Virus genome (UHGV): UHGV-0171332
Strand: one strand, 5' to 3'
Source of the DNA: a virus
Length of the DNA stretch: 18,525 nucleotides
This document shows, piece after piece, positions 855 to 18,525 of the stretch. Within the stretch, counting starts at the first letter, position 1, and each line of letters opens with the position of its first letter. The notes beneath the pieces are model-generated. The model was not told the DNA's origin. It saw only the letters and a program-made list of their open reading frames with translations, and did no database searches. Made by a program: the position numbers and the translations under genes.

Positions 855-876
855 GTAATACCCGACAACATGTCAT

Positions 877-1227: not shown

Positions 1228-1236
1228 GAAAACCGC

Positions 1237-1258
1237 GACGGGGACGAAAGTCCCCGTC
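1237..1258 (+). other. GC-rich stem-loop with GAAA tetraloop, 3' of the hok-like ORF (RNA structural element, no U-tract)
   Basis: Perfect 9-bp inverted repeat GACGGGGAC / GTCCCCGTC around a GAAA loop, 10 nt after the stop codon. It is not followed by a T-run, so it looks more like a stabilising or processing hairpin than a canonical intrinsic terminator. Confidence 0.4.
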
Positions 1259-1307
1259 AACTGGTTGCTGAGGTTCAGCCGATATGGCACCCGTTTCTGG
1301 TGAGAGA

Positions 1308-1685: not shown

Positions 1686-1736
1686 CTGCCACTGTATTCA
1701 TTATCGTGTGTAAACCAATTGCAATTCACATTCTGA

Positions 1737-1760
1737 CCCTGCCCCGGCAGGGTTTTTTGT
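1737..1760 (+). terminator. Rho-independent terminator
   Basis: CCCTGC / GCAGGG stem with a CCCG loop followed by TTTTTTGTT, about 50 nt after the stop of the 1308-1685 ORF and just before the 1777 start. Confidence 0.6.
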
Positions 1761-1776
1761 TATCCAGGGGGCCATA

Positions 1777-2433: not shown

Positions 2434-2435
2434 TT

Positions 2436-2882: not shown

Positions 2883-2891
2883 GGGGGCAAT

Positions 2892-3143
2892 ATGGGATAC
2901 GGTTTACTGGATATTGCGAATCAGTCGCGGCGTGAGGCATTACAGGGAATAAGTGATGCCGACAGACGACGTGAAGAAATTGAGGCCGCGAACAAACAGA
3001 TGGCGGCGCAACAGAAAGCGCAGAACAAACAGAATATCGGCACGGGAATTGGTACGGGTGCAGCTATGGGCGCTGCTGTTGGTGGTCTCCCCGGTGCGGC
3101 TATTGGTGCTGTCATAGGTGGTATTGCTGGTTCTTTGTTTTAA
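2892..3143 (+). CDS. Small protein (83 aa) with charged N-terminal half and C-terminal glycine-zipper transmembrane segment
   Basis: SD AAGGGGG 5 nt upstream of the ATG. The C-terminus GIGTGAAMGAAVGGLPGAAIGAVIGGIAGSLF is a repeated GxxxG/A small-residue hydrophobic segment typical of membrane-inserting helices. Confidence 0.6.
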   Translation: MGYGLLDIANQSRREALQGISDADRRREEIEAANKQMAAQQKAQNKQNIGTGIGTGAAMGAAVGGLPGAAIGAVIGGIAGSLF

Positions 3144-3153
3144 GGAGTGGTGA

Positions 3154-4419
3154 ATGAGCGGATTTGCACAGGGTTTACTTGCCGGATTCAGCACGGTTGA
3201 CCAGGCAATGACCCGTCGTAAGGAACTTGGTTTGCGAGAAGCACAGCTTGCTCAACAACAGAAAAATAACGAGCGCGATTTTGAATTTGCACAGTCGCAG
3301 TTTGAACATAATAAAGACGTTGATCAGCGGAACTTTGATTACAGAGCCAAAGTCGACGACCGTAATTATGCACTGCAGGAAAGGGAGTTTAACGCCAACC
3401 AGAATTACCGGAATGCGTCGCTGGGTATGGAGCAGCAGCGACTCCGGATGCAGAAATACAACCAGCGACGGCTTGAGTATAACGATATGCTGGCGCGCGA
3501 TCAGCCTGTGATGGCGGCGCTTGGAAAGGCTGTGGATGCTGGCGATCGGGATGCAGCAATGCGTCTTTACGGCCAGTTGTCAGAGGGTAATCCGCTGAGG
3601 CTGATGGCGAATGATGGCTATGTAGCGAAAGCGGGTCAGGCCGTGAACAACCTGCAAAAAATCTTTGATGACAAGCCAGACAGGGCTATCGCTTCACTTA
3701 ATACGCCGGAGAATCTTGATGTCCTTTCCGGGGTGTTTGGCCCGGAACTGCAACAGCGTATTGGCATGCCCGATTCAACCGGGAAAAAGACGATAAAAGA
3801 GGCCAGGATTGGCAGTATAGTACCGGCACAGCAGGAAGGGTACATACTTATCGGCCTTGATCTCACATACAGTGATGGCTCTACAGCACATAAACCCGTT
3901 ACGGAATACGGCAGTGCACATCCTGATGATCAAACCGTGCTGGCGGTGCCTGTTGATAAGGCTGTTGAGCTTGTCAGGGAACGCAGTAAATTCGCGGAAA
4001 TTTCGAAAAATTTCGGCTATTTCACGCCGAAGCAGCAGGGACTTTCTGCGGATCAACTTCAGAAAGGAGCCAGCCAGGTAGCGATAAAGGTTGCACAGGA
4101 CGGCGGTGATGCGCAGGGAGCAGTGACGCAATATTATGCTTCGATGGGACTGCCGCAGTATCAGCAGCAAATTCAGCAGCAAAAAATTCAACAAGGGATT
4201 ACCAGTTGGGCGGGTGATGATCCGGATAAGCAGGCATTTGCCAGAGAAGTGGCCTCCCGTCAGCCAGAAATGCTGGAGCCTCAGAATCAGAAATTGCTGG
4301 AACACGGGTATGCGAATTTTCTCCGTATTCAAAAGGCCAGGGAGGAACAGGCCAGGGATGATAGCGCGGCCTCTGCATCTGAGTTTATCCGTGGTCTGAA
4401 ACAGAATTACGCGCAGTAA
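3154..4419 (+). CDS. Hypothetical protein (421 aa), Gln/Asn/Arg-rich, probably coiled-coil rich
   Basis: SD AAGGAG upstream and the start lies 10 nt after the previous stop. The N-terminus has a GLLAGF small hydrophobic patch followed by long charged Q/R/E-rich stretches. No catalytic motif recognised. Confidence 0.6.
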   Translation: MSGFAQGLLAGFSTVDQAMTRRKELGLREAQLAQQQKNNERDFEFAQSQFEHNKDVDQRNFDYRAKVDDRNYALQEREFNANQNYRNASLGMEQQRLRMQKYNQRRLEYNDMLARDQPVMAALGKAVDAGDRDAAMRLYGQLSEGNPLRLMANDGYVAKAGQAVNNLQKIFDDKPDRAIASLNTPENLDVLSGVFGPELQQRIGMPDSTGKKTIKEARIGSIVPAQQEGYILIGLDLTYSDGSTAHKPVTEYGSAHPDDQTVLAVPVDKAVELVRERSKFAEISKNFGYFTPKQQGLSADQLQKGASQVAIKVAQDGGDAQGAVTQYYASMGLPQYQQQIQQQKIQQGITSWAGDDPDKQAFAREVASRQPEMLEPQNQKLLEHGYANFLRIQKAREEQARDDSAASASEFIRGLKQNYAQ

Positions 4420-4450
4420 TTCACCATTCCCGTTAATACTATTTCCTGAT

Positions 4451-4477
4451 ACCCGGTCATTGTGCCGGGTTTTTTTA
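4451..4477 (+). terminator. Terminator-like hairpin immediately upstream of the giant ORF RBS (possible attenuator)
   Basis: ACCCGG / CCGGGT stem with an 8-nt loop followed by T7, ending about 10 nt before the ATG at 4488. The GGAG Shine-Dalgarno sits right after the T-run. Confidence 0.45.
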
Positions 4478-4487
4478 TGGAGTCTGT

Positions 4488-7400
4488 ATGGCTTATTCCG
4501 ATGAACAGCGCCCTGAAGCGCAATTTGGCAACCAGAGCCGCAACAGCCTGAACATTCAGCAGCCGGGAGAGACTGACAGCTATGATGTGTTTTTCTCCGA
4601 TCCCAATCGCTGGAAGGACAACAGCACGTCGTTCAGCCTGGGCGATGTATTGCCAACTATGGGGAAAGGTGTCGCCCAGTCCGTCCGGGGGACAGGGGAA
4701 ATGGCCCGTGGACTCGGTGATGCGATGATTCAGAGCCCGGTAAAAACAGGGGTACGTATTTTAAATGAGTTCAGCCGTATGGGGCTGCCGGGAGTCGCAA
4801 CTGTTCAGGATATTTTTGTCGGTGGCAGCAAGGGGGCGGATGAGGTCATCGACACTCTGCCTGATGGAAAAAATGCGGTTACTGATACTGTCGGTAAAGG
4901 TCTGAAGGTCACAGGCAAGGCCGTCAGTGGCGGCGCTAAAGCCTCGGATGAATGGCTGACTGGCAAGATGTCGCCGGGGGCGCAGCGGGCGCTGAATACA
5001 CCGATGACTGAAGGATATGATGATTCAGCGGTCTGGGTAGCGAAAGGGGTTAACCTGATTGGTGCGCTTGTACCGGATATGGTTGCAGGCGGTGTGACTA
5101 AAAAGCTGGGTGATGTCACTCTGCGAAAAGTGCTGACCGCCGGGCTGGAGAAAAAATACATCGCGGCAGGGATGCAGCCGGAAAGAGCCACAGCACTGGC
5201 AGCCGAAGCTGTCGATAAAAAAATGCCGGATTTTTTCCAGGCAGGCCTGATCACCCATTCCACTGTCAGTGCGCAAGGGCGGAGTGCAATGGCAGCGGCA
5301 GATGCTGTTCTTAACGCGGATTATTCTGAGCTGGCGAAGTCACCGAAATTTCAGCAGACCTTTTTGTCAATTGATGCAGATCCGCAGCACGCGCAGCTTA
5401 CTGACCGCCAGAAAATGGACCTGGCAAAAGAGCGTGTTGCCGATGAGGTGCGTGCGCAGCTGGCAACCGATCCTGAATTGCTGGCTGTGAATGCCATGGC
5501 GGCAAAACTGGGCGATGCTCAGTTGCTTAATCTGGCGATGCGGGGCACGGCGAAGACCGTTAAAAGCGGCATTGTCAGAAATGCCACGGAACAGGGGACG
5601 ATTAATGCGGCGCAGGGTGGCTATTCACGCTATCAGGAAAACACGGCATTGCGTGAGACCGCCGGAATGGATGTGTCACCGTGGGAGGGCGTGGCTGACG
5701 CAACGATCGAAGGTGCAGCCCTTGGTGCTGCAATGGGGGCACCATTCGGTGCGGCTGCCGGATATCGTGGAAAACGTCAGGCGGCAGATGAAGCAGCCAT
5801 GCGTGAGGCTGAAAGCGTTCCTCAGGACGAATCGGCTCCGCAACCCGAACCGGTTGATCCGGTGGCACAGCATCGTGAATCTATGCAGGGGATGAATCGC
5901 GAGCAGCTTCTGGAACAGTATGCTGATGCGGATATGGCACATGAGGGAGACACGTCTGCCGTTCATCGCCGGGAAGCCGCCAGCCAGCTGTTGAATGAAC
6001 TGGATGAACAGGCGAAGCGACAGGCGGTGATGGATGAGCTGAAGGCGAAGCCGCGCCCTGAACTGCTTGAGGAATACCGAAAACTCAGCCAGAAGGAAGG
6101 GCGTACTGATACTGAAGAGCAGCAGTTACAGGCAATACGTGATGTGCTTCGCCCTCAGCGGGAGGCCAGACCGGAGGCACAGCCACAGCCGGAAAATGCG
6201 GATGATGGCGACGGGAGTATTTACCCGACGGTGCGGTTCCGCGATCCGGATGAAGTTCGTATTGAAATTAACGAGAGTGGTGCGTCCAGACCAGCAGAAC
6301 GCATTGAAAAGGTGCGTCCGGACAACCGTTATTTCACGGATGAAAAAAGTGCTCTGGGGAGCGACGTTTTCCGCAATGCCAGCGCCACCGGCCTGAAACC
6401 GTCCGTAGTGAAGAAAGGCGAGAATCAGTATGCCGTTGAAATGGATAATCCTGCGTTCTCTGAAGATGTGGCAACGGAGACCATTAACACTCTGGCTGAC
6501 GGAGAGCGTATTACTGATGCTGATCCGATGGAACAGCCCGCGTTCATGCGTGACCCGCGATTCCGTGGTTTTACGGGGGATGATACAGAAGTGCAGGCCC
6601 GTCTTGCTCGTGGCAACGCGCCGACGGCGGAAGAACTGGTGCGTTCCCAGATGGCTGAAGGTGATGCCGGTCCGACAGCACAGGAGTTAACTGAGCGTCC
6701 ACGCCTTCCCGCTCCCGGCGATATTCATCCCGGACAGGGATATCCGTTACCAGGAGAAGTAGCGCGTACGCCGGATGAAAATCAGGCCGGACGTGGTGGT
6801 CGTTTTACCACAACCGGTGAGGTGAAGGGCCAGAGTTTCCAGAAAGGACGTGCGCAGGCACCGGAAAATGCCGCTGGTCGCCAGGGGGAAATACTGGAGG
6901 GCGAAACAGTTCGTCGTGGTCTGCCGTCACCGGATGAGCAGAACGCCACAGCACCAGTGCGTGAAGGTCTTCCTGCACCTGAAAGTCAGCGTGGGGTTGA
7001 TATGCCACAGCCTGAATCACTCCCTCGTATGGTTCGTGACTCCCTTCCGGAACTGGCACAGCAGGCAGAAGCACGCAGACAGACCGGGGATAATCGCCAG
7101 ACCATAACCGATGTTCCGGATACTGAGGTGCCGGTGCCGGTAGATAAACCGAGCACTCACCAGCAGGCGCGTGGTGCGAAAATTGAAGACTTTGGCGAGG
7201 AGATTAAGGGCGCGGCAAAACACCGTTATGCGCAGCTTGCTGAAGCTATGGGTAAAACGCTGGAGGATGGGGAGTACGCGACACAACCACTGAGCAAACT
7301 GTTTCCAAAGCCGGATTATGCCCGTCTGGAAAAAGAAGGTGTGGATAGTGACACGCTGGCAATGATGGCGTTGTATCGCAGTGAAATTCCCACCAGAACA

Positions 7401-10400
7401 AGCCGTAACATGCAGAAATGGATCAGCATTGTTAAAAGCGGTCGCGAAGCTACTGCCGGTATGCTGGAGGGGAAAATTCCGGCAGCGAAACTGGCTGATA
7501 TGATGGACAGTAAGCCGGGGTTACGGAGCATGTCGGATACCTGGAAACTGCTCCGTACGCTTTCTGCATTGCAGATTGATAAAGCATCCGGCTATCGTGT
7601 CAGGTCCGGTGTTTATTCGTTTGTCGGGGGAAAACGTTACGATCCGCCGCAAATGATGTATTCGCTTCGTGATAGCAAGGGGCGCGACCTCTTTTTCTCG
7701 GAAAGCCGGGATGAGTTACTGAAAAAGGCGAAAGCATATTTCGATGAACAAGGCTCCAGAGAAAGGGAAACGCCAGCAACCTCTGCTGATGACAGAATAA
7801 CCTTTGACGTGTACCGGCATAAGGCCAGTGGCGACATTTTTATCGGTTATGGCAAAAACAGGCAGAAACTGAAGGGCGGTTTTGAGTCTGCCCGTGATGC
7901 ACATGATTATGTGCGCACACATCGTGATGAGCTGGTTAATCAGGTGAAGGCGCTGCGTGAAGTCTCGCGTGAGGAGCAGCGTAACGCCACCAACCGCGAT
8001 CGTACCGGACCAGAACGCCGCAAGGGGGATGTTTCGCCGGAGCAGTTCAGTGATGCGTTTGGTTTTCGTGGTGTGCAGTTTGGTAATTATGTGGAAAGTC
8101 CGCGTCGTCAGGCTGATTTGAACCGGGCTTATGACTCGCTGCATGACCTGGCTGACGTGCTGAACGTGCCGACAAAAGCGCTTTCTCTGAACGGTCGTCT
8201 TGGGCTTGCTTTTGGTGCCCGTGGTAAGGGTAAGGCGGCGGCACACTATGAGCCGGGTGAGGTGGCAATCAACCTGACAAAAGGTAACGGACCGGGGGCG
8301 CTGGCCCACGAATGGTTCCATTCACTGGATAATTATTTTGGTCGTTATGATGTTTCCACTGACGGGAAGATCACGTCAGGTGGCGACTATATGACGGAAG
8401 CACAGCGTGCCGGGCGCGTATTTAAAGACGGCAGGTATGTTGATGCGGAATATCCGGTACGTCAGGAGGTTTACGACGCGTTTAAAGGCGTGATGAAAGC
8501 CATTAACAGCAGTGACATGTTGCGTCGTTCTGAACGCCTGGATGGCGTTCGTTCAAAACCGTACTGGTCAACGGATGTTGAAATGGCGGCGCGAGCCTTT
8601 GAGCGTTATGTTCAGGATAAAGCGCGTATGGCTGGCGTGGAGAATGATTATCTGGTCAATATCCGTAAGGCGGATGACCATGGACAGCCGGACACCTACG
8701 CTTATCCGACGAATGCAGAACTGGATGGCGGTATTCGTGAGGCATTCGATCACTTGTTCCGAACACTGAAAACCCGTGAGACGGACAAGGGAGTTGCGTT
8801 TTATTCCCGTAAGGGCGTGACCCGCACACCTGAAGGCAATCTGATTTCGGATGTTAACCGCAGTGCGGAAGCCAAAGGCAGTCCGGTCCCGCAGGTTGAA
8901 GCTGTTGCCCGTGGCGTGATTAGTGGCATTAAGGACAGTGACCTGAAGGTCCGCGTGGTGAAGTCACAGAAAGAGGCTGAAGCACTGGCGGGTGAATCAT
9001 TCGACGGTTACGGCAAGGTGCACGCGTTCTATCGTCCGGATAAACGTGAAATTGTCCTGGTGGCGGATAACATCCCTGACGGGCGGACCGTTCGCGAGAA
9101 GTTACGTCACGAGATTATTCACCATGCAATGGAGCATGTAGTCACGCCAGCGGAATATCAGACGATTATTAAGACCGTGCTGAAAACCCGTGACAGTGAT
9201 AACGCCACCATCCGTGAAGCCTGGCGTAAGGTTGATGCGTCTTATGGTAAGGAATCACCGGAAGTGCAGGCGGGTGAATTTCTGGCGCATATGGCAGAGA
9301 AGCAGCCGATTAAATTCGTGGCGGCATGGGAGCGTGTTGTTGCCCTGGTCAAAGGGGTACTGCGTCGTACGGGGTTACTGAAGCCGACGGAACTGAACGA
9401 TATCAGACTTGTTCGCGAAACTATTCGCACGTTAGGCCAGCGTGTGCGGGAAGGTTACACGCCGCGTGAGGATGGCGCGGACGCATCGTCTCAGTACTCC
9501 CGTAGCGGTAAGCCTGATCCGTTCAAAGTGCCGGAAGGTGAGGGCGAGCGTTATCGTGATGACCTTGCCAGAATGATGAAGTCTCTGCGCACCACAGATT
9601 TAACGGTAAACATCGGGCGTACGCCGCCGGTATTGCGTCACCTTGGCGCACCAGATTTGCCGCTGGTTATCTCCCGCGACACTGTGCGTAAGGCCACCAA
9701 TGGAGTGAAACATGTGGTGCCGATGGATGTTATCGAGAGACTACCGGAACTGATGCACGATCCGGATGCAATTTACCGTTCCGCGACAGAAAGAAATGCG
9801 GTTGTGATGCTGCTTGATGCCATGGATAAAAATGGTGATCCTGTAGTGTCAGCGGTACACATGAAGGCTGTCCGGTCGCGCCTGGAAATCAACAAGGTAG
9901 CTTCGGTTTACGGTACGGAAGGAGGAATGAATAAGGCAAATAGTCTGGATAAAGCCGGATTAACGCTTTACCGGAAGAAAAAATTAAGCCGCGATAACCT
10001 TCTGCACAGAGGGCTTCAATTGCCCAAAGGGGAACATTCTTATCGCGGCTCTGTAGATAAAATACTCTATCCTGAAGATATTCGCAAGGGGCCGTATTAC
10101 TCCCGCACCAGCAGTCTGACGCCGGAAGAGACAATTGCATCCCGTTTTGTTCGCCAGATGCAGGATAAATTCCAGGTGCTGAAGGCGGTGCAGGAGAATA
10201 TCCGTAAAACTGGCGGAAAAATAGATGACAGCAATAACGCCTATATGGCTGAAGAACTCTTCCACGGGAAGGCGGAAAACGACCTGAACGTAATGAAGGA
10301 GCGCTACGTTCAGCCGCTGGCCAAATTGCTGGCGGACTACAAAATTGCGCAGGCCGATCTGGATGAGTACCTCTACGCCCGTCACGCGCCGGAACGTAAC

Positions 10401-12842
10401 GCGCATATTGCGAAAATCAACCCGAAAATGCCGGACGGCGGTTCGGGGATGACCAACGCGGAAGCGGCGGAAATCATGCAGCGTGTGCGTAACAGCGGCA
10501 AACAGGCACAGTATGACCGTCTGGCAGGGATTATTGACGATATGCTGGCCCGTCGCCGTGAGATTATCCGTGAGGCAGGACTGGAAGAGAGCGGCGTGGT
10601 GGATGCCTGGCAGAAAGCCTACCGTTACTACGTCCCCCTGAAAGGGCAGGATGTTGACGGTGTGGTGTCACTGCCACGTACAGGCAAGGGATTCACCATC
10701 GGCGGGCGTGAAAGTAAGCAGGCCATGGGGCGTGCATCCCGCGCACAGTCTCCTTCCACTCAGGCGATACAGGATTTGAGTGAATCGCTGATCCGCAATC
10801 GCAAAAATGAAGTGGGTAACGCCTTCCTGAAACTGGTACAGGATAATCCCGACAAGGATTACTGGCAGGTATTCACTGATGACAGACCGGATACAATGCG
10901 TGTGATTGCAGAGCGCAAGGACCAGGAAACTGGTGAAACCATTCGCGAAGTTGTCGAGCGCCCTGTGCCGATGGCAATGATGGCGGATCGCTACTTCACC
11001 ACCAAAAAGGACGGCAAAACTTACTACATTAAACTTCATGATCCGCGCCTGATGCGTGCGATGAAGAACATGGGGCCGGAAACCAGTAACGCCGTAATCC
11101 GTACGCTGGGGAAAGTTAACCGCTTCCTGGCAACGGTGAACACGTCGTATAACCCGGAATTTCTGGTCAGTAACTTCATCCGTGACGTGCAGACTGCGGT
11201 GATGAACCTGAAGGCTGAGCAGGGAAGAAGCGACGGCAAACTGAAAGGGCTGGATAACTTATCCGCGCTGGCTGTGGTGAAAGACAGCCGTTCCGCCATG
11301 TCAGCCGTATACGCAAGTCTGCGGGGTAAAACCCTCACGGGCAAAGGCGCACAGTGGCAGAAAGTGTGGAAAGAGTTTGTTGAGGACGGAGGTAAAACCG
11401 GCTGGTTTAACATGGGTGACCTTGAGGGCCAGCAGAAGGAAATGGATCGCCTTGTGTCGCTGGCGAAGGGCGGATGGAAAGGCCAGAGTATCGGTGCATG
11501 GCATTCGTTCCTGAACCTGGTCGAGGATGCCAACGGCGCGGTTGAAAACGCTCTGCGTCTTTCTGCCTATAAACACGCCCGTGATGCCGGTTTGTCACGC
11601 CAGCAGGCGGCGTCTCTTGCCAAAAACATGACGGTGAACTTTAACCGTCGTGGTGAGCAGGGGATGCTGATGAACTCGCTGTACATGTTTGCCAACGCCA
11701 GCATTCAGGGGACCGCAAACCTGGTGAGAACGCTCGGACATCTTAATGGCGACGGGCCGTTACTGGAGCGCCTTCGCTGGAAGAATCTCAATGTACCGCA
11801 GAAAATCGTGCTTGCAGCTGTGGGAGCGGGTTATCTGCTTGGCTCGCTTAACCGCAGTGTGGCGGGTGAGGATGATGACGGGGTTAACTGGTACGACAAA
11901 GTACCGTCTCATGTGAAAGAGCGTAACCTCGTCATCATGAAATCGATGTTCGGGGGCAAGGCCGGTGAGTACTGGAGTATTCCTCTGCCTTACGGGTACA
12001 ACGTGTTCTTCCTGCTTGGTCATACAGCTGAAGGTGTGGCAGCGGGCGACCTGACTGCTTCACGTGCTGCCGGTAATGTTGTCGGCGGTATCCTGGGAGC
12101 ATTCAGCCCGATCGGCAGCGAGACGTCGGAAACGTTGTCGGGGGCATTGCTGAAAAACGCAGCACCGACCATTCTGCGTCCGTTTGCGAACCTTGCCATG
12201 AATGAAAACTTCATGGGGGCGCAGATTTACCAGGAGAACATGCCGTTTGGTACACCAAAACCTGACAGCCAGCTGGGAAGACGTTCAACGCCAGAAGCGT
12301 ACAAGGCGTTTGCATCCTGGCTGAATGCGTTCTCAGGTGGCAGCCAGTATCGTCCCGGCGCGGTGGATATCACACCGGAATCGCTGAAATTCTGGATTGA
12401 CTATATCTCCGGAGGGACAGGGCGCTTCATTTCCAAAACCACGGATGCGGCGGTGAAATCGCTGAATGGTATTGATATACCGGAACAGCAGGTGCCCTTC
12501 CTGGGGAAAATTTCGGGTGAGGTGATGCCGTATGCAGACCAGCAGAAGATGTACGACCGGATGACAGAGGTTGCGCAGTATCACGCAGAGCTGAAGAGTC
12601 TGACCGGTGCAGAAAGAACGGCGTTCATTGACGAGAACAACGGAAAATTGTTGATGAACGGGCTTATGCAGGATACCCGGAAGAGACTGAAGGATTTGCG
12701 CAAACAGCGCGATGCCATTTATGCCGACAGTTCTCTCAGTCTGGCGCAGCAGGCGGCGATGGTGAAATCGGTAGAGCGGGATATGAAGGTTGCCGTGGAT
12801 CGGTTTAACCGCGAGTACAACAAAAAAGTGGGAGTGGATTAA
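4488..12842 (+). CDS. Giant multi-domain protein (2784 aa) with two HExxH (zincin-like) motifs, a Pro/Glu/Gln-rich low-complexity linker and hydrophobic Gly/Ala segments; function unknown
   Basis: Uninterrupted 8355-nt ORF with GGAG SD. HEWFH at aa 1274-1278 (nt 8307-8321) and HEIIH at aa 1541-1545 (nt 9108-9122). Gly/Ala hydrophobic stretch EGAALGAAMGAPFGAAAGY at aa 408-426 (nt 5709-5765). C-terminal hydrophobic segments near aa 2438-2454 and 2529-2545. No Walker A or methyltransferase motif seen. Coding status is high confidence; functional assignment is low. Confidence 0.85.
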   Translation: MAYSDEQRPEAQFGNQSRNSLNIQQPGETDSYDVFFSDPNRWKDNSTSFSLGDVLPTMGKGVAQSVRGTGEMARGLGDAMIQSPVKTGVRILNEFSRMGLPGVATVQDIFVGGSKGADEVIDTLPDGKNAVTDTVGKGLKVTGKAVSGGAKASDEWLTGKMSPGAQRALNTPMTEGYDDSAVWVAKGVNLIGALVPDMVAGGVTKKLGDVTLRKVLTAGLEKKYIAAGMQPERATALAAEAVDKKMPDFFQAGLITHSTVSAQGRSAMAAADAVLNADYSELAKSPKFQQTFLSIDADPQHAQLTDRQKMDLAKERVADEVRAQLATDPELLAVNAMAAKLGDAQLLNLAMRGTAKTVKSGIVRNATEQGTINAAQGGYSRYQENTALRETAGMDVSPWEGVADATIEGAALGAAMGAPFGAAAGYRGKRQAADEAAMREAESVPQDESAPQPEPVDPVAQHRESMQGMNREQLLEQYADADMAHEGDTSAVHRREAASQLLNELDEQAKRQAVMDELKAKPRPELLEEYRKLSQKEGRTDTEEQQLQAIRDVLRPQREARPEAQPQPENADDGDGSIYPTVRFRDPDEVRIEINESGASRPAERIEKVRPDNRYFTDEKSALGSDVFRNASATGLKPSVVKKGENQYAVEMDNPAFSEDVATETINTLADGERITDADPMEQPAFMRDPRFRGFTGDDTEVQARLARGNAPTAEELVRSQMAEGDAGPTAQELTERPRLPAPGDIHPGQGYPLPGEVARTPDENQAGRGGRFTTTGEVKGQSFQKGRAQAPENAAGRQGEILEGETVRRGLPSPDEQNATAPVREGLPAPESQRGVDMPQPESLPRMVRDSLPELAQQAEARRQTGDNRQTITDVPDTEVPVPVDKPSTHQQARGAKIEDFGEEIKGAAKHRYAQLAEAMGKTLEDGEYATQPLSKLFPKPDYARLEKEGVDSDTLAMMALYRSEIPTRTSRNMQKWISIVKSGREATAGMLEGKIPAAKLADMMDSKPGLRSMSDTWKLLRTLSALQIDKASGYRVRSGVYSFVGGKRYDPPQMMYSLRDSKGRDLFFSESRDELLKKAKAYFDEQGSRERETPATSADDRITFDVYRHKASGDIFIGYGKNRQKLKGGFESARDAHDYVRTHRDELVNQVKALREVSREEQRNATNRDRTGPERRKGDVSPEQFSDAFGFRGVQFGNYVESPRRQADLNRAYDSLHDLADVLNVPTKALSLNGRLGLAFGARGKGKAAAHYEPGEVAINLTKGNGPGALAHEWFHSLDNYFGRYDVSTDGKITSGGDYMTEAQRAGRVFKDGRYVDAEYPVRQEVYDAFKGVMKAINSSDMLRRSERLDGVRSKPYWSTDVEMAARAFERYVQDKARMAGVENDYLVNIRKADDHGQPDTYAYPTNAELDGGIREAFDHLFRTLKTRETDKGVAFYSRKGVTRTPEGNLISDVNRSAEAKGSPVPQVEAVARGVISGIKDSDLKVRVVKSQKEAEALAGESFDGYGKVHAFYRPDKREIVLVADNIPDGRTVREKLRHEIIHHAMEHVVTPAEYQTIIKTVLKTRDSDNATIREAWRKVDASYGKESPEVQAGEFLAHMAEKQPIKFVAAWERVVALVKGVLRRTGLLKPTELNDIRLVRETIRTLGQRVREGYTPREDGADASSQYSRSGKPDPFKVPEGEGERYRDDLARMMKSLRTTDLTVNIGRTPPVLRHLGAPDLPLVISRDTVRKATNGVKHVVPMDVIERLPELMHDPDAIYRSATERNAVVMLLDAMDKNGDPVVSAVHMKAVRSRLEINKVASVYGTEGGMNKANSLDKAGLTLYRKKKLSRDNLLHRGLQLPKGEHSYRGSVDKILYPEDIRKGPYYSRTSSLTPEETIASRFVRQMQDKFQVLKAVQENIRKTGGKIDDSNNAYMAEELFHGKAENDLNVMKERYVQPLAKLLADYKIAQADLDEYLYARHAPERNAHIAKINPKMPDGGSGMTNAEAAEIMQRVRNSGKQAQYDRLAGIIDDMLARRREIIREAGLEESGVVDAWQKAYRYYVPLKGQDVDGVVSLPRTGKGFTIGGRESKQAMGRASRAQSPSTQAIQDLSESLIRNRKNEVGNAFLKLVQDNPDKDYWQVFTDDRPDTMRVIAERKDQETGETIREVVERPVPMAMMADRYFTTKKDGKTYYIKLHDPRLMRAMKNMGPETSNAVIRTLGKVNRFLATVNTSYNPEFLVSNFIRDVQTAVMNLKAEQGRSDGKLKGLDNLSALAVVKDSRSAMSAVYASLRGKTLTGKGAQWQKVWKEFVEDGGKTGWFNMGDLEGQQKEMDRLVSLAKGGWKGQSIGAWHSFLNLVEDANGAVENALRLSAYKHARDAGLSRQQAASLAKNMTVNFNRRGEQGMLMNSLYMFANASIQGTANLVRTLGHLNGDGPLLERLRWKNLNVPQKIVLAAVGAGYLLGSLNRSVAGEDDDGVNWYDKVPSHVKERNLVIMKSMFGGKAGEYWSIPLPYGYNVFFLLGHTAEGVAAGDLTASRAAGNVVGGILGAFSPIGSETSETLSGALLKNAAPTILRPFANLAMNENFMGAQIYQENMPFGTPKPDSQLGRRSTPEAYKAFASWLNAFSGGSQYRPGAVDITPESLKFWIDYISGGTGRFISKTTDAAVKSLNGIDIPEQQVPFLGKISGEVMPYADQQKMYDRMTEVAQYHAELKSLTGAERTAFIDENNGKLLMNGLMQDTRKRLKDLRKQRDAIYADSSLSLAQQAAMVKSVERDMKVAVDRFNREYNKKVGVD

Positions 12843-12965
12843 CAGAAATGGCCCCGTACGGAAGTGCGGGGCTGATTAAGAAATAAACACACATTAACCT
12901 GTAATAACCGGAGCTATTAACATATAGTCAGAAAGAGTGTTTCATGTGAGACAGAGAGCCGATTT

Positions 12966-13184
12966 ATGTTTAATGAAGAAAAAGTTGCGCAAATGGCAGC
13001 GTATTTGCTGAAAAAGCATGGCGGATCTATGCGTTTCATTAAGCTGATGAAGCTGATGAAGCTGATGAAGCTGATGAAGCTGATGTATCTCTCTGACCGC
13101 AAAGCAATGGAGTCTTTAACCGGGAAGGGGAGAGGTTTGAATGCTCCCCCACAATTCCCCGGCATCAAATCTCCATGCAGGTGA
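12966..13184 (+). pseudogene. Truncated Panacea/SocA-like (DUF4065-type) phage-associated gene fragment carrying an in-frame repeat expansion
   Basis: The N-terminus MFNEEKVAQMAAYLLKKHGG...KLMKLMYLSDR resembles the start of Panacea-domain proteins as I recall them (KLQKLLY-type helix). The ORF stops after 72 codons where it meets the 3' end of the convergent minus-strand gene block; full-length family members are roughly twice that length. Confidence 0.4.
13041..13085 (+). repeat. Perfect 9-bp tandem repeat (AAGCTGATG) x5, in frame (KLM x5)
   Basis: Five head-to-tail copies read directly in the sequence. The minus-strand reading gives the spurious ISF repeat ORF. Confidence 0.95.
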
Positions 13185-13270
13185 ACTATTTTACCCCCAG
13201 CGGCAAATCGCAAAAACAATCAGTGCGATCAAAATGGCAGCCACTACAATTGCAAATGCTTCAGGCTAGG

Positions 13271-14197
13271 TCATTGGCGTACCTCCTTCGGCGGTTCTGG
13301 TAGCGGCATCCAGTGGGTTACTTCTTTGAGATGCAGGTCTTCGCCATCACCGTCATCCCAAGTGGGATTGCCATCATTAAACCAGTCGCCATATACGCCG
13401 ACCTGAGTGTTGGGGATGCTTGGTGGGTAGTTGTTTTTAAAGTCAGCTGCTAACACATAGTATTGTCGCTCTCCCATTTCTGGCATTCGATCACTACAGC
13501 TTATCCAACCATCCGGAGTTACCGGAACTGGCGGAACGGCTGTTTGCTCTCGAACGTCATTAGTCGCTATCGGTTCTGCTGCCAACTGACTGGCATATTT
13601 GTTAATGGTAACGATAAGCTCTTGCTCAGCCTCATCCAGACAATCACCGATACCTCGCCTGTCACCGTCAAAATCATCGAAATCGGCACGAATCTTGGCA
13701 ACCTTCAGGATTGCGGACAACACCTCACTAGGAATTACCGGATAGTTGGTTGACGTTTCCGCGATTTCCCGAAAATTATTGGTTGACGAATTCTTGTTTT
13801 CCCGAAAGTTTCCGGACTGAAGCATAGCGGCACGGCAGGCGTTCCAGCCTCTCACCTCTGCAATAGCGGCAACAGCATCAACCGCGTACATGCTAAGAGG
13901 ATTAGGCATTGGTTTTTCTTCCGGTACTACTGGTGCTGGAGGGGCGGCGTAAATGCCCTCTATCACTAAATGTTTGCGCTCAAAATCATCTGGCTCTCGA
14001 TGATATACGTAACTCCAATCACCAAGGTTATCATTGCGCCTGCAACGGAAACCTATCGGCTCGGCTTCCAGCGCTGCCAGTGCAATTCGTGCCAGTTCTT
14101 CCGCTTCTTCTGCTGGCAGTACAACGTTGCTACCCGGTCCGTATGTTTCGCGCCACTGCTTGATTGTCAGCAGTCGCCCTTTGGTAATAGTGATCAT
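13271..14197 (-). CDS. DUF551-domain protein, Ead/Ea22-region type (308 aa)
   Basis: C-terminal region DGWISCSDRMPE...YYVLAADF...THWMPLPEPP matches the DUF551 signature as I recall it. Its stop lies at the convergence junction and its start overlaps the upstream gene stop by 4 nt (ATGA), indicating an operon. Confidence 0.7.
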   Translation of the reverse strand: MITITKGRLLTIKQWRETYGPGSNVVLPAEEAEELARIALAALEAEPIGFRCRRNDNLGDWSYVYHREPDDFERKHLVIEGIYAAPPAPVVPEEKPMPNPLSMYAVDAVAAIAEVRGWNACRAAMLQSGNFRENKNSSTNNFREIAETSTNYPVIPSEVLSAILKVAKIRADFDDFDGDRRGIGDCLDEAEQELIVTINKYASQLAAEPIATNDVREQTAVPPVPVTPDGWISCSDRMPEMGERQYYVLAADFKNNYPPSIPNTQVGVYGDWFNDGNPTWDDGDGEDLHLKEVTHWMPLPEPPKEVRQ

Positions 14198-14709
14198 GCC
14201 GCGTTTCCTTCTTTCTTATTAACAATCACACCGTCATATATTTCATTAAGGTGCCCTCTCAACTCCATGCGCCTTAATGCAGATAACATGTAATCGCATT
14301 CAACCTGCTTATTCCCAGTAAATGGCTTATCGTCAGGATTACCCCAACAGCAATTACCCCTGGGCCATCCATGTACTTTCCGTACTCTTCCGTTAACAAC
14401 GTGAAGTAATCCCCAGCCGGGAGGTAAATCCTCAACTGAAATAATTTCCGGCTCACTAATAAAGAATCGCCAGTCGCCCATGCCAAGTGAGGGATTTTTA
14501 CGGAAACGCTTTTTTCTATCTGCCAACAAGTCAGCACGAGAACACTTCGCCTCTATCAGGCATGATGCTGAATTTCTGAATCCCATAGCATCTGGCTGTT
14601 CTCCGGTACTGGTTACAGCTATAAAGCGGTCATGAAAACAAACCTTGAACCCGTTGCGCTTAAGGAACTTGTACGCAATCTGACAGAGTTCGCGGTGTGT
14701 TAATGCCAT
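14194..14709 (-). CDS. Hypothetical protein with PD-(D/E)xK nuclease-like motif (171 aa)
   Basis: Motif EQPD...(12 aa)...LIEAK: a PD followed by ExK at spacing typical of the restriction-endonuclease-like fold. The C-terminal half is Cys/Trp-rich. Fold assignment is an inference from motif only. Confidence 0.55.
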   Translation of the reverse strand: MALTHRELCQIAYKFLKRNGFKVCFHDRFIAVTSTGEQPDAMGFRNSASCLIEAKCSRADLLADRKKRFRKNPSLGMGDWRFFISEPEIISVEDLPPGWGLLHVVNGRVRKVHGWPRGNCCWGNPDDKPFTGNKQVECDYMLSALRRMELRGHLNEIYDGVIVNKKEGNAA

Positions 14710-14710
14710 A

Positions 14711-15412
14711 TCACTCTCCTTTGATGCGAATGCCAGCGACGCGTAATGCGTGTTCTAGGTCAATCAGGTAAAGCCAACTGCCATTTTCTTTAGGTATCAT
14801 GACGTGGCGCTCATCATCATTTATCGGATGTCCATATCGAAGGCCGTAGCGAGTCGGCAAATGAACTTCCCGCGTTTCCAGCTCTTTAACGCGTTCCTCC
14901 AGTTCGTAGACCCTGCATTGTTCTCTATCATCAATCAGATATAACCCAAGACATTCGCTTTCTACCCAACCGCCAAAATCATGATCGTAACGCTCACATG
15001 AAAACTCACCGTCACCGTCCTTTGTTGGAATGGTGTAACTATCTAATGGGCCACCATATGTCGGCACATTTCCCAATGTTGGATGCTCAATCCACATGAA
15101 AAATGTACGTCCGGTTATTGGGCAAATATCTGGCCGCCATTGGTTACGAACAGCCTTGGTTTCGGATAATTCTTCAGCGTGTTGTTTTACTTCCTCAAGC
15201 TCAACACGCAGCTTCCCAACCGTAAGAGCAATTTCCTCGTTCTCCTGGTCGCGGCGTTTGATGTATTGCTGGTTTCTTTCCCGCTCATCCAGCAGTTCCA
15301 GCACAATCGATGGTGTTACCAATTCATGGAAAAGGTCTGCGTCAAATCCCCAGTCGTCATGCATTGCCTGCTCTGCCGCTTCACGCAGTGCCTGAGAGTT
15401 AATTTCGCTCAC
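14711..15412 (-). CDS. Ead/Ea22-like family protein (233 aa)
   Basis: N-terminus MSEINSQALREAAEQAMHDDWGFDADLFHELVTPSIVLELLDERE followed by a charged coiled-coil-like stretch, as recalled for Ea22-like proteins of E. coli lambdoid prophages. The 4-nt overlap (ATGA) with the upstream TraR-like gene fits lambda early-left organisation. Confidence 0.7.
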   Translation of the reverse strand: MSEINSQALREAAEQAMHDDWGFDADLFHELVTPSIVLELLDERERNQQYIKRRDQENEEIALTVGKLRVELEEVKQHAEELSETKAVRNQWRPDICPITGRTFFMWIEHPTLGNVPTYGGPLDSYTIPTKDGDGEFSCERYDHDFGGWVESECLGLYLIDDREQCRVYELEERVKELETREVHLPTRYGLRYGHPINDDERHVMIPKENGSWLYLIDLEHALRVAGIRIKGE

Positions 15413-15630
15413 TTCGAACCTCTCTGTTTACTGATAAGCTCCAGATCTTCCTGGCAACTTGCACAAGTCCGACAACCCTGAACGACCAGGCGTCTTCGTT
15501 CATCTATCGGATCGCCACACTCACAACAATGAGTGGCAGATATAGCCTGGTGGTTCAGGCGGCGCATTTTTATTGCTGTGTTGCGCTGTAATTCTTCAAT
15601 TTCTGATGCTGAATCAATGATGTCTGCCAT
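15409..15630 (-). CDS. TraR/DksA-family C4 zinc-finger protein (73 aa), phage TraR-like (lambda orf73-type)
   Basis: CCECGDPIDERRRLVVQGCRTCASCQ contains the CxxC...CxxC zinc ribbon with the conserved acidic tip of the DksA/TraR family. The size matches phage and plasmid TraR proteins. Confidence 0.8.
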   Translation of the reverse strand: MADIIDSASEIEELQRNTAIKMRRLNHQAISATHCCECGDPIDERRRLVVQGCRTCASCQEDLELISKQRGSK

Positions 15631-15680
15631 CTTCCATTAATCCCTGAATTGTTGGTTAATACGCTTGAGGGTGAATGCGA

Positions 15681-15707
15681 ATAATAAAAAAGGAGCCTGT
15701 AGCTCCC
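15681..15707 (-). terminator. Intrinsic terminator on the minus strand inside the early-left-like cluster
   Basis: On the minus strand: GGAGC / GCTCC stem with a 5-nt loop followed by a T-rich tract (TTTTTTATTATT), between the stop of the 15729-15944 ORF and the TraR-like start. Confidence 0.45.
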
Positions 15708-15728
15708 TGATGATTTTGCTTTTCATGT

Positions 15729-15944
15729 TCATCGTTCCTTAAAGACGCCGTTTAACATGCCGATTGCCAGGCTTAAATGAGTCGGTGTGAATCCCATCAG
15801 CGTTACCGTTTCGCGGTGCTTCTTCAGTACGCTACGGCAAATGTCATCGACGTTTTTATCCGGAAACTGCTGTCTGGCTTTTTTGATTTCAGAATTAGCC
15901 TGACGGGCAATGCTGCGAAGGGCGTTTTCCTGCTGAGGTGTCAT
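15729..15944 (-). CDS. Hypothetical small protein (71 aa from internal ATG; the ORF track extends it to 16010, 93 aa)
   Basis: Intact ORF in the early-left-like cluster. Start is ambiguous: the ATG at 16010 has no SD and sits 10 nt after the upstream stop; the ATG at 15944 has a weak GGGA upstream. No motif recognised. Confidence 0.45.
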   Translation of the reverse strand: MTPQQENALRSIARQANSEIKKARQQFPDKNVDDICRSVLKKHRETVTLMGFTPTHLSLAIGMLNGVFKER

Positions 15945-16020
15945 TGAACAAGTCCCATGTCGGCAAGCATAAGCACACAGAATATGAAGCCCGCTGCCAG
16001 AAAAATGCATTCAGTGGTTG

Positions 16021-16212
16021 TCATACCTGGTCTCTCTCATCTGCTTCTGCTTTCGCCACCATCATTTCCAGCTTTTGTGAAAGGGATGCGGCTAACGTGT
16101 GAAATTCTTCGTCTGTTTCTACTGGTATTGGCACAAACCTGACTCCAATTTGAGCGAGGCTATGTGCCATCTCGATACTCGTTCTTAACTTAACGGTAGA
16201 TGCTTTGTGCAT
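16021..16212 (-). CDS. Hypothetical small protein (63 aa), lambda orf63-like by position and size
   Basis: Internal ATG at 16212 preceded by a G7 tract. The long form of the track ORF (to 16458) would overlap the ren start and its promoter region, so it is disfavoured. Assignment to the lambda orf63 family is by length and position only. Confidence 0.45.
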   Translation of the reverse strand: MHKASTVKLRTSIEMAHSLAQIGVRFVPIPVETDEEFHTLAASLSQKLEMMVAKAEADERDQV

Positions 16213-16321
16213 ACAGCCCCCCCATTTATTATTTATCTCCTCAGCCAGCCGCTGTGCTTTCAGGGGATTTCGGATTACAGAAAGGCCGGGAAATACCCAG
16301 CCTCGCTTTGTAACGGAGTAG

Positions 16322-16420
16322 ACGAAAGTGATTGCGCCTAAACCTCTAAATCGTGCACAGGCTCTGGCGAAGATCGCAGAAATTAAAGCTAAGTTCGGAC
16401 TGAAAGGAGCAAGTGTATGA
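16322..16420 (+). pseudogene. Possible 3' remnant of an upstream replication-region gene (lambda P-like position) ending in an ATGA overlap with ren
   Basis: A 33-codon open frame (TKVIAPKPLNRAQALAKIAEIKAKFGLKGASV*) with no start codon; its stop overlaps the ren ATG as in stop-start coupled phage operons. Identity as a P fragment is inferred from synteny only. Confidence 0.25.
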
Positions 16421-16719
16421 CGGGCAAAGAGGCAATTATTCATTACCTGGGGACGCATAAGAGCTTCTGTGCACAGGACGTTGCCGCGGTAACAGGCGCA
16501 ACCGTAACCAGCATAAATCAGGCTGCGGCTAAAATGGCGCGGGCAGGAATCCTGGTCGTTGATGGTAAGGTCTGGCGAACGGTGTATTACCGGTTCGCTA
16601 CCAGAGAAGAACGGGAAGGAAAGGTGAGCACGAATCTGATTTTTAAGGAGTGTCGCCAGAGTGCCGCGATGAAACGGGTATTGAGGGTATATAAAAGAAC
16701 ATCAATGGGTACACAATGA
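16417..16719 (+). CDS. ren: Ren-like protein (100 aa)
   Basis: SD AAAGGAG upstream. The sequence MTGKEAIIHYLGTH...VTSINQAAAKMARAG...VWRTVYYRFATREEREGK matches my recollection of lambda Ren (not searched). It sits immediately upstream of emrE, as renD does in DLP12. Confidence 0.6.
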   Translation: MTGKEAIIHYLGTHKSFCAQDVAAVTGATVTSINQAAAKMARAGILVVDGKVWRTVYYRFATREEREGKVSTNLIFKECRQSAAMKRVLRVYKRTSMGTQ

Positions 16720-16786
16720 TGAAACAGGTGAGTTGAGTTCAAACTGTAGTACAATTCTCTCCAGTTTGAACAGGAAAGAATATGCT

Positions 16787-17119
16787 ATGAACCCTTATAT
16801 TTATCTTGGTGGTGCAATACTTGCAGAGGTCATTGGTACAACCTTAATGAAGTTTTCAGAAGGTTTTACACGGTTATGGCCATCTGTTGGTACAATTATT
16901 TGTTATTGTGCATCATTCTGGTTATTAGCGCAGACGCTGGCTTATATTCCTACAGGGATTGCTTATGCTATCTGGTCAGGAGTCGGTATTGTCCTGATTA
17001 GCTTACTGTCATGGGGATTTTTCGGCCAACGGCTGGACATGCCAGCCATTATAGGCATGATGTTGATTTGTGCCGGAGTGTTGGTTATTAATTTATTGTC
17101 ACGAAGCACACCACATTAA
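16787..17119 (+). CDS. emrE: EmrE small multidrug resistance (SMR) efflux transporter (110 aa)
   Basis: MNPYIYLGGAILAEVIGTTLMKFSEGFTRLWPSVGTIICYCASFWLLAQTLAYIPTGIAYAIWSGVGIVLISLLSWGFFGQRLD...STPH is near-identical to E. coli EmrE as I recall it, including the catalytic Glu14 in helix 1. The track's TTG start at 16733 adds 18 non-conserved residues and is rejected. Confidence 0.92.
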   Translation: MNPYIYLGGAILAEVIGTTLMKFSEGFTRLWPSVGTIICYCASFWLLAQTLAYIPTGIAYAIWSGVGIVLISLLSWGFFGQRLDMPAIIGMMLICAGVLVINLLSRSTPH

Positions 17120-17150
17120 AAATAATTTGTTTCTAAACGACTAAAATATG

Positions 17151-17190
17151 GAGGCTCTTATATTTATATGAGCCTCGTTTTATGCTTTTT
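17151..17190 (+). terminator. Rho-independent terminator of emrE
   Basis: GAGGCTC / GAGCCTC stem with an AT-rich 12-nt loop followed by GTTTTATGCTTTTT, 30 nt after the emrE stop. Confidence 0.6.
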
Positions 17191-17377
17191 GTTAATGTCT
17201 TTATTTTTTTTTATGTATTCTTTTGTGCTTTCAAGATTATGGTGTAAGAAAATTGCAATACGATTATTGTTGTATATTCAAGATAATGTGACCTTAATTG
17301 TCTTTTTAAATAAAAATTAAACAAAAATTATATCTCACCACTAAGGTTTATAAAAACATACGTTAGCAGGTGTCACC

Positions 17378-18525
17378 ATGAAAAAAGCCATAGCATATAT
17401 GCGATTTTCATCACCAGGTCAGATGTCTGGCGACTCATTAAACCGACAGAGAAGACTTATTGCTGAATGGTTAAAGGTAAATAGTGATTATTATCTTGAT
17501 ACCATAACATATGAAGATTTAGGATTAAGTGCATTCAAAGGAAAGCATGCACAATCAGGAGCTTTTTCGGAATTTTTAGATGCTATAGAGCATGGTTATA
17601 TATTGCCAGGAACTACATTGTTAGTTGAAAGTCTGGACAGGCTTTCAAGAGAAAAAGTCGGTGAAGCGATTGAACGTCTGAAATTGATTTTGAATCACGG
17701 TATTGATGTTATAACTCTTTGCGACAATACAGTCTATAATATTGACTCTTTGAATGAGCCATATTCATTAATAAAAGCCATACTTATAGCACAAAGGGCA
17801 AATGAAGAAAGCGAGATAAAGTCAAGTCGGGTTAAATTATCATGGAAGAAAAAACGGCAGGATGCACTGGAATCAGGTACGATTATGACGGCGTCTTGTC
17901 CGAGATGGCTATCCTTAGATGACAAAAGAACGGCTTTTGTTCCAGACCCCGACAGGGTGAAAACTATTGAGCTAATTTTTAAACTCAGGATGGAAAGGCG
18001 CTCATTGAATGCAATAGCCAAGTATTTAAATGATCATGCTGTAAAAAATTTCTCAGGAAAAGAAAGTGCATGGGGGCCTTCTGTAATTGAAAAATTATTA
18101 GCGAATAAAGCTCTGATAGGTATATGCGTACCTTCATATCGTGCAAGAGGTAAAGGAATAAGTGAAATCGCTGGCTATTATCCCAGAGTCATATCAGATG
18201 ATTTGTTTTACGCTGTGCAGGAAATTCGGTTGGCACCTTTTGGTATTAGCAATAGTAGCAAAAATCCTATGTTGATAAATCTACTTCGAACAGTTATGAA
18301 GTGCGAGGCTTGTGGTAATACCATGATTATTCATGCGGTATCTGGAAGTTTGCATGGCTATTATGTTTGTCCGATGAGAAGACTGCATCGATGTGACAGG
18401 CCATCAATAAAGAGAGATTTGGTTGATTATAATATCATTAATGAGTTGCTTTTTAATTGTAGCAAAATCCAACCAGTTGAAAACAAGAAAGATGCTAATG
18501 AAACTTTAGAGTTGAAAATTATTGA
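17378..18525 (+). CDS. ybcK: Large serine recombinase (resolvase/invertase-type N-terminal catalytic domain), 5' part only; runs off the window end
   Basis: N-terminus AIAYMRFSSPGQ matches the catalytic-serine motif of serine recombinases (Y-x-R-x-S-x-x-x-Q), and Cys-rich CEACGN...CPMRRLHRC suggests a zinc ribbon in the recombinase domain. The symbol is assigned by synteny with DLP12 emrE-ybcK: the 258-bp spacing matches my recollection of K-12 to within a few bp. Confidence 0.8.
   Translation, partial: MKKAIAYMRFSSPGQMSGDSLNRQRRLIAEWLKVNSDYYLDTITYEDLGLSAFKGKHAQSGAFSEFLDAIEHGYILPGTTLLVESLDRLSREKVGEAIERLKLILNHGIDVITLCDNTVYNIDSLNEPYSLIKAILIAQRANEESEIKSSRVKLSWKKKRQDALESGTIMTASCPRWLSLDDKRTAFVPDPDRVKTIELIFKLRMERRSLNAIAKYLNDHAVKNFSGKESAWGPSVIEKLLANKALIGICVPSYRARGKGISEIAGYYPRVISDDLFYAVQEIRLAPFGISNSSKNPMLINLLRTVMKCEACGNTMIIHAVSGSLHGYYVCPMRRLHRCDRPSIKRDLVDYNIINELLFNCSKIQPVENKKDANETLELKII

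Follow-up and report, generated by a model that had tools for sequence, protein, structure and literature searches.

The window analysed here is a stretch of 18,525 bp, corresponding to a whole metagenome contig (ENA ERZ1034626 NODE_1117, about 5x coverage). Towards its right end, leftward accessory genes of lambda type are followed, at a short distance, by a piece of a possible replication gene and by ren, with no immunity region between them. The questions raised by this arrangement are whether it results from a deletion, at which nucleotides the exchange took place, what was lost with it and how such a join may have been formed. A previous reading, made from the letters of the sequence alone (the sequence-only reading), had placed a deletion junction within about 200 bp separating the two sets of genes.

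The junction and the genes beside it

Two arms of lambda-like sequence were found by blastn to meet in this region. The left arm (window 15195-16340) corresponds to lambda 30178-31323, with 97.7% identity, and the right arm (window 16339-16692) to lambda 40202-40555, with 93.5% identity. When E. coli K-12 is used for comparison (566.6-570 kb), positions 16339-16507 match peaD/renD at 99.4%, and positions 16506-18525 match the 3' part of renD, emrE, ylcJ and ybcK at 98.4%. The boundaries of the arms locate the breakpoint at 16339/16340, on a TA dinucleotide which is present in both parents, at lambda 31322-31323 within orf60a and at 40202-40203 within P, as established by blastn and by comparison with lambda, KFu019, EC50 and K-12; the microhomology at the joint amounts to these 2 nt. 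Judging from these alignments, the TA at 16339/16340 is very probably the scar of a deletion of about 8.9 kb in a lambdoid prophage, by which the TA of orf60a codon 10 was joined to the TA of P codons 207-208.

The deletion junction proposed earlier is therefore real, but it does not lie in a 200-bp spacer. The minus-strand genes had been described as ending at 16212, which is instead the start codon of orf63 (DUF1382; 16021-16212, minus strand), an intact gene. A remnant of orf60a (DUF1317) continues on the same strand and fills 16185-16340, so that the 200 bp are not intergenic. This remnant has neither the start codon nor the first 9 codons, its residues 10-55 align at 87%, and it is frameshifted at a run of seven C residues near 16218, from which it reads on into orf63; it is annotated by PGAP as 'DUF1317 family protein, frameshifted'.

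On the plus strand, the startless frame reported to run into the ren ATG with an ATGA overlap is indeed present: it is open from 16322 to 16420 (32 codons and a stop), and the ren ATG is at 16417. Its assignment to the tail of a replication gene holds for the last 26 codons, which correspond to lambda P 208-233, but not for the first 6, which are antisense to orf60a. Alignment to the 3' ends of P genes supports the assignment, at 93.5% for lambda and at 99.4% for peaD/renD of K-12 DLP12. The P remnant, of the DLP12 allele, extends from 16341 to 16420 on the plus strand, within the mechanical open frame starting at 16322; it consists of the last 26 of 233 codons plus the stop, overlaps ren by the ATGA at 16417-16420 and carries a single substitution with respect to lambda P 208-233, a G-to-A change at 16341 (R208K). 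In strains 1409, ET358 and F1005 the same fragment is labelled by PGAP as 'replication protein P, missing N-terminus'. For the purposes of annotation, calls of 'P' and DUF1317 at this locus are to be taken as pseudogene fragments, and the element should not be counted among inducible phages.

To the right of the junction, ren (16417-16719, plus strand) is intact and codes for 100 aa. It is followed, on the same strand, by emrE (16787-17119), coding for an SMR efflux transporter and representing cargo of the DLP12 type, by the small ORF ylcJ (17168-17320) and by ybcK (17378-18525), a large serine recombinase gene cut by the end of the contig, in which Resolvase, Recombinase and Zn-ribbon domains are found and the YxRxSSxxQ motif is intact. 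YbcK is listed among the 16 site-specific recombinases of K-12 (PMC5426353). To the left, beyond orf63, the minus strand carries an orf61 homologue (15729-15944, 71 aa), a zinc-finger gene of the TraR/DksA type, located where lambda has orf73 (15409-15630), and a chimeric ea22-like gene (14711-15412, 233 aa). Predicted promoters and terminators in the interval 15600-17200 were no more numerous than in shuffled sequences, and no promoter-like site directed into ren or into orf60a'/orf63 was found there.

Two minor features of these genes may be recorded. A mechanical ORF of 145 aa (16021-16458, minus strand) starts at an ATG antisense to ren, crosses the junction and runs through the orf60a remnant into orf63, staying in frame because of the C7 frameshift. 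In addition, a 1-nt indel distinguishes ylcJ of the window (17168-17320) from that of strain 1409 (L001 21469-21620); the gene is open in the window (50 aa) and is marked as frameshifted by PGAP in 1409, ET358 and F1005.

An 80-mer spanning the junction was found in 3 of 5,426 complete E. coli genomes, namely those of strains 1409, ET358 and F1005, all of which match the junction region at 100% across 1,101 bp. This result bears on the notion that the joint was created by metagenome assembly, or that the region is the native intergenic DNA of an unusual phage. The coverage of the contig is only about 5x, and the contig is a mosaic: positions 1-15304 share 99.7% identity with a prophage remnant adjoining ynfG/ynfF in E. 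coli cM8a (97.8% in O104:H4), positions 15179-18525 share 99.6% identity with a defective att-lambda prophage of strain 1409, and a stretch of 126 bp (15179-15304) inside the ea22-like gene (14711-15412) belongs to both homology blocks. An independent second metagenome contig (L007), however, is 100% identical over 2,599 bp, equivalent to window 14565-17163, so that neither the mosaic point nor the deletion junction is an assembly artefact; for the junction, an artefact is refuted by the three finished genomes and the second metagenome together. Both arms are, moreover, truncated coding sequences, orf60a being without its start and P without 207 codons. Taken as a whole, an artefactual or native origin is hardly credible.

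The lost interval and related elements

The lambda interval missing from the window is 31324-40201. It includes exo, bet, gam, kil, cIII, ssb/ea10, ral, N with nutL, pL/oL, rexBA, cI, pR/oR, cro, cII, O with ori-lambda, codons 1-207 of P and the first 28 nt of orf60a. When 24 lambda proteins were compared with the window by tblastn, matches were obtained only for ea22, orf61, orf63, residues 10-55 of orf60a, the C-terminus of P and ren; int, xis, exo, bet, gam, kil, cIII, N, rex, cI, cro, cII, O and ninB gave none. Pfam scans of the remaining window ORFs revealed no repressor or replication domains. The earlier observation that repressor, cro, N, O and P genes are missing from the window is borne out by these searches, P being represented by its C-terminal fragment only. 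The loss goes beyond the immunity and replication regions, as the Red/kil/N part of the early-left operon has gone as well. The early-left genes had also been supposed to have lost their native pL, and this is the case, since pL, together with N, falls inside the deleted interval.

With such a gene content, the element would be unable to repress, to antiterminate, to replicate or to kill its host from the early operons. Those genes of the exo-xis region that survive (orf63, orf61, the orf73-like and the ea22-like gene) would be left without pL, and ren without its native pR.

The elements carrying the identical junction in 1409, ET358 and F1005 are one and the same, inserted between ybhC and ybhB/bioA (att-lambda) and equipped with lambda-type int and xis. 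In the left part, the order is int, xis, a few small genes, a truncated ea22, an orf73-like gene, orf61, orf63 and orf60a'; across the junction, orf60a' is followed by 'P, ren, emrE, ylcJ and ybcK; further to the right come nin genes, rusA, quuD, a porin gene, lysis genes, a Rha-family gene and the small terminase subunit and, at the far right, fragments of an invertase and of a tail-fibre assembly gene. No immunity, replication, head or tail-shaft genes were found in this att-lambda element of the three strains. The sequence-only reading had considered the window element probably cryptic, and this agrees with the visibly defective state of the elements sharing its junction, the copy in the window being judged by its relatives. 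As early functions have been lost and the emrE and ybcK cargo has been kept, we infer, from the deleted interval and from these relatives, that the element is a domesticated cryptic remnant retaining cargo of the DLP12 type. By itself, the scar shows no more than that a dead DLP12-related prophage, in which emrE and ybcK are retained, is carried on the contig.

The prophage DLP12 of E. coli K-12, whose gene order is intD-xisD-exoD-peaD-renD-emrE-ylcJ-ybcK, had been suggested to have undergone the same kind of deletion. In kind the parallel is correct, the right arm being the ren-emrE-ylcJ-ybcK block and the immunity and replication regions having been lost, but the event is a different one. 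The two elements share a right arm made of a C-terminal fragment of P, ren, emrE, ylcJ and ybcK (98.4-99.4% identity) and the loss of immunity, replication and Red genes; furthermore, the xisD/exoD boundary of K-12 is found at the same TA of orf60a as the left breakpoint of the window. They differ in that exoD/peaD of K-12 joins lambda 31627 to 39974, whereas the window joins 31323 to 40202-40204; of exo, 264 bp remain in K-12 and none in the window, and of P, 312 bp remain in K-12 and 80 bp in the window; orf60a, orf63 and orf61, kept in the window, are absent from K-12; renD of K-12 contains an IS3; and the K-12 prophage is located at argU with intD, while the window-type elements of complete genomes are at att-lambda with lambda-type int and xis.

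Further variants are known from other strains: orf60a/'O-P-ren in KFu019, the same junction with an additional P-internal deletion in EC50, dam'/'P in REL606, exo'/'P in STECUZB006, orf63'/bet' and gam.../'P in PSS-07, orf60a/'ren in BS74R-D and exo'/'ren in strain 41. In all of them a truncated early-left gene is joined to a truncated O, P or ren, and the immunity region is missing. Compared with the window, the right breakpoint is different in each variant, the left one is often different too, and the window type is rare, given its occurrence in three complete genomes of the 5,426 searched. The lethal and immunity core has evidently been lost many times over in the DLP12 family, and the window is a further deletion variant of a cryptic prophage of this family, ordinary in kind, for which exact breakpoints are now given.

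Recurrent breakpoints and the origin of the joins

The left site is the TA of GCGCC-TA-CCCGG (lambda 31322-31323), in orf60a codon 10, 25 nt downstream of the exo stop. To the nucleotide, the same TA recurs in no fewer than 17 distinct deletion junctions, which run in both directions and include xisD/exoD of K-12 MG1655 (loci L004, L008, L009, L013, L015-L025, L127, L134 and L144-L153); these junction types are possibly not all independent, as homologous recombination can swap the alleles on either side and there is an over-representation of K-12-like strains. In KFu019, EC50 and BS74R-D the left breakpoint is identical to that of the window, again to the nucleotide. A pattern scan, requiring a match to orf60a up to ...GCRCCTA followed by divergence, returned 11 loci with about 10 different right arms. 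Among the right arms joined to this TA, two sites in O are represented, along with P207 (the P allele being a second, divergent one), ren, the ninB and ybcO regions, the C-terminus of a replication gene, late genes and stf; all of the arms are oriented as expected for deletions inside a prophage. Complete genomes add orf60a/P codon ~33 (FORC 064) and orf60a/dam (YZ_2_2).

In an unbiased scan of 120 loci, anchored 30 nt upstream, breaks within 700 nt were confined to two places: 31323-31325, in 4 loci, and 31716, in 2 loci. Junctions retaining the other side of the orf60a TA were also found: one is internal to intD (...GGCGG-TA-CCCGG), the other is upstream of int (...GTGAGG-TA-CCCGG) and coincides with the xisD/exoD boundary of K-12 MG1655. 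An 80-mer centred on the intact site matched 3,221 genomes, 2,927 of which have an intact copy; for about 294 of the 3,221 the best match is only a half, beginning or ending at the TA. Among species-representative genomes, the left-arm junction pattern gave no hits, and the reciprocal pattern was found in two K-12-type E. coli genomes only. No description of the breakpoint was found in the literature on orf60a, on DLP12/emrE/ren, on illegitimate recombination in lambdoid prophages, on ybcK or on microhomology in cryptic prophages.

The partner sites show a sequence rule of their own. A TA is present at the exchange point in all 15 partner sites for which an uninterrupted parent could be recovered (chance P about 4e-21). 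GGTA is found in 10 of the 15, compared with 7% of the TA sites of lambda (binomial P = 6e-9); position -2 is G in 13 of 15, and position -1 is G in 10 and C in 3, which gives a consensus G-(G/C)-T-A with a G/C-rich 5' flank. The bottom strand of the orf60a site reads GGTA. No extended or dyad-symmetric recognition sequence common to the partner sites was detected beyond this consensus and its flank.

About 250 fetched loci were compared with lambda. Among the 23 distinct deletion junctions found, 16 have a TA inside the junction microhomology, exoD/peaD of K-12 (GGGAGG-TA x TGGTT-TA) being one of them, and 7 do not cross at TA. Several partner sites are used repeatedly (O 39349 twice, P 40203 three times, gam 32926 twice), and further reused TA sites are exo 31627/31632 and exo 32002/32005; the reused sites in O, P, gam and exo were seen in loci L009, L022, L025, L185, L217 and L238. 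Inversion-type adjacencies were not found in any of the approximately 250 loci, for which selection and search design both favour deletions. With the orf60a TA and other TA/GGTA sites being reused in this way, the decay of E. coli prophages does not look random at the nucleotide level.

Such a concentration of breakpoints might still have no specific mechanism behind it, and derive from ordinary microhomology deletions that are over-counted by descent, with arms spread via recombination and selection acting for the loss of the exo-to-P interval. Many other left breakpoints do occur, in exo, gam, dam and orf63, the loss of kil, N, O and P is plausibly advantageous, and the databases are biased towards K-12 derivatives. 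Selection, however, is unable to fix a breakpoint at one nucleotide, and at least 17 different partner sequences are joined to the same TA; the P values obtained for TA at 15 of 15 partner sites and for the excess of GGTA, and the single other break position within 700 nt in the unbiased scan, point in the same direction. A purely non-mechanistic origin of the hotspot, which we regard as improbable, is thus largely contradicted, and some process would appear to target these sites.

The joint of the window needs a further remark. It reads CCTA-A-ACCTC, where a clean exchange at TA would give CCTA-G-ACCTC, as is the case in locus L022; either a substitution or some other history must therefore be assumed. 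The deletion could have occurred in two steps: first a junction of the KFu019 type (orf60a/'O(141 bp)-P-ren) at the same TA, then a 757-bp deletion from there to P codon 207. KFu019 and EC50 both carry orf60a/'O at the same left nucleotide, the extra DNA of KFu019 with respect to the window is exactly 757 bp, and the window sequence GCGCCTAA-ACCTC may be read, with no point mutation, as the KFu019 left arm through CCTAA followed by P from ACCTC. That secondary deletions occur is indicated by EC50, where the further P-internal deletion ends at the same P site, and by 99COLEC, probably derived from the window type. The left arm of the window is, however, the lambda-like allele (GATTGCGCC) and not that of KFu019 (GATCGCGCC), to which it is only 97.5% identical over 642 bp; the window-type elements are located at att-lambda and KFu019 at argU; and the second deletion would have to begin within 1 nt of the first junction. 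Finally, the orf60a x P207 join of L022 shows the expected G and involves another allele of P, so that a direct join between the two sites is possible. A two-step history is conceivable, though we consider it less likely than not; otherwise the junction would have been made in a single step within an intact prophage.

In 99COLEC (L150 2480-2520), the junction ...GTGTTGCCTG/AAACCTCTAAATCG (...GCCTG/AAACCTC) has the unusual A of the window and not the native G of P. This atypical A, kept at the P site, suggests derivation from the window type, and the 99COLEC junction is probably a second deletion, by which the whole exo-xis remnant of a window-type element was taken out.

As to how joins at TA could be made, the structure of the joints is always left arm-TA-right arm, one copy of the TA being kept, and both reciprocal product types are found at the orf60a site. 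The exchange looks RecA-independent. A cut-and-rejoin reaction with a 2-nt stagger at TA would fit every product, carried out by a serine recombinase on pseudo-sites or by a nuclease plus ligase; in the latter case the TA ends might be ligated while RecBCD destroys the excised piece. TA-anchored microhomology joining, starting from a site-specific lesion, would be an alternative option. We put forward, as a tentative proposal, that these prophages may have been gutted repeatedly by a TA-specific, sequence-preferring cut-and-rejoin activity, having its strongest site in orf60a and its source in YbcK, a Pin paralogue or a TA-overhang nuclease; the scar of the window, several further DLP12 variants and both DLP12 junctions of K-12 would be covered by this one mechanism of domestication.

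The more definite statement that the TA/GGTA joins were made by an enzyme with a 2-nt stagger, either a serine recombinase (YbcK or a Pin-type invertase) or a TA-overhang nuclease with ligase, is in our opinion quite questionable, and the evidence is divided. Every such junction has the form left arm-TA-right arm with TA in both parents, and the orf60a site is found in both reciprocal forms. A sequence preference is seen in the flank that is deleted, which end resection and 2-nt annealing would not predict, and orf60a was joined to P207 twice independently, in two alleles. The gene ybcK, about 1 kb to the right of the junction, has the full architecture of a large serine recombinase and an intact catalytic motif; yet junctions of this sort also occur in elements with no ybcK nearby, such as that of BS74R-D, and no report on the activity or function of YbcK was found in the literature on ybcK. 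The partner sites, as noted, have no extended or dyad-symmetric sequence, and rejoining that is blind to orientation predicts inversions, of which none was seen in about 250 loci, unless they are selected away. No recombinase, nuclease or structure has been tied to the orf60a site. For integrases, moreover, a palindromic central dinucleotide is unusual.

Other candidate activities were considered and rejected. A 4-nt stagger, of the gyrase type, predicts that a whole tetranucleotide comes from one parent, which is not seen: the bases flanking the TA come from different parents, and such a stagger therefore does not fit. Models based on XerC, IntI, lambda Int and RusA, and on IS5, IS630, IS1, IS608, RAYT and IS110-type elements, judged provisionally on their consensus sequences, appear to fail on the crossover position, on the absence of an IS or on a missing core. 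Hairpins predicted at the orf60a site and at P207 by single-strand folding were no more stable than those of shuffled sequences (z from -1.25 to +0.08), which leaves an explanation based on structure without support.

Two known types of deletion may be compared with the joins described here. In lambda Int-promoted 'b' deletions and in Cin-mediated quasi-cix deletions, one endpoint is fixed at a recombination site, and variable partners share the crossover nucleotides. The likeness lies in the fixed endpoint and in the variable partners with shared crossover nucleotides; the difference is that the fixed site is there an established att or cix site served by an identified recombinase, whereas here it lies inside orf60a and has no enzyme linked to it. 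Microhomology-mediated illegitimate recombination, or alternative end-joining, in E. coli is similar in its RecA-independent look and in the very short homology at the joint, but dispersed breakpoints are expected from it, whereas here a single position is common to 17 or more types of junction, and TA is the crossover in 16 of the 23 junctions. Processes mediated by microhomology are not known to favour one dinucleotide or to return many times to single nucleotide positions.

A conservative recombinase would predict excised circles containing ...GG-TA-CCCGGATATT, while slippage or resection would not. Should an enzyme be responsible, it would provide a concrete mechanism by which the lethal core is stripped from lambdoid prophages while the cargo stays; should none be, the orf60a TA would still be a practical marker for sorting remnants of the DLP12 family.

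Mosaic structure of the window

In a search with the whole window, no complete E. coli genome was found to contain it entirely; the best one covers 83%, up to position 15304. The two parents of the mosaic at 15179-15304, of the ynfG type and of the att-lambda/DLP12 type, are inverted relative to each other on the chromosome, and the window could accordingly mark one endpoint of an inter-prophage inversion spanning about 850 kb.

The ynfG-type block (1-15304) contains Lom (117-854), Hok (1087-1227), an 83-aa Gly-zipper/bacteriocin-like ORF (2892-3143), several hypothetical genes and an ORF for a 'polyvalent protein' of 2,784 aa (4488-12842), with LPD5, LPD1, MuF_C and LPD38 domains, at the end of a late region of the short-tailed lambdoid type; leftward DUF551 and ea22-like genes follow. 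No Rfam family was detected over the whole window at gathering score. In the interval 12843-13270, which separates the end of the late genes (marked by the LPD5 protein) from the leftward accessory genes, neither an integrase nor an att site was found, and the ynfG remnants of cM8a and O104:H4 likewise have none between the same genes. This common absence suggests that, in this type of phage, the leftward accessory genes are on the tail side of attP, like the b region of lambda.

A small ORF of the same region (12966-13184) includes a perfect tandem repeat of 9 bp in five copies (AAGCTGATG, 13041-13085), coding for KLM five times. The corresponding ORF is 201 bp long in cM8a and 276 bp long in O104:H4, and in view of this difference the number of KLM repeats may vary.
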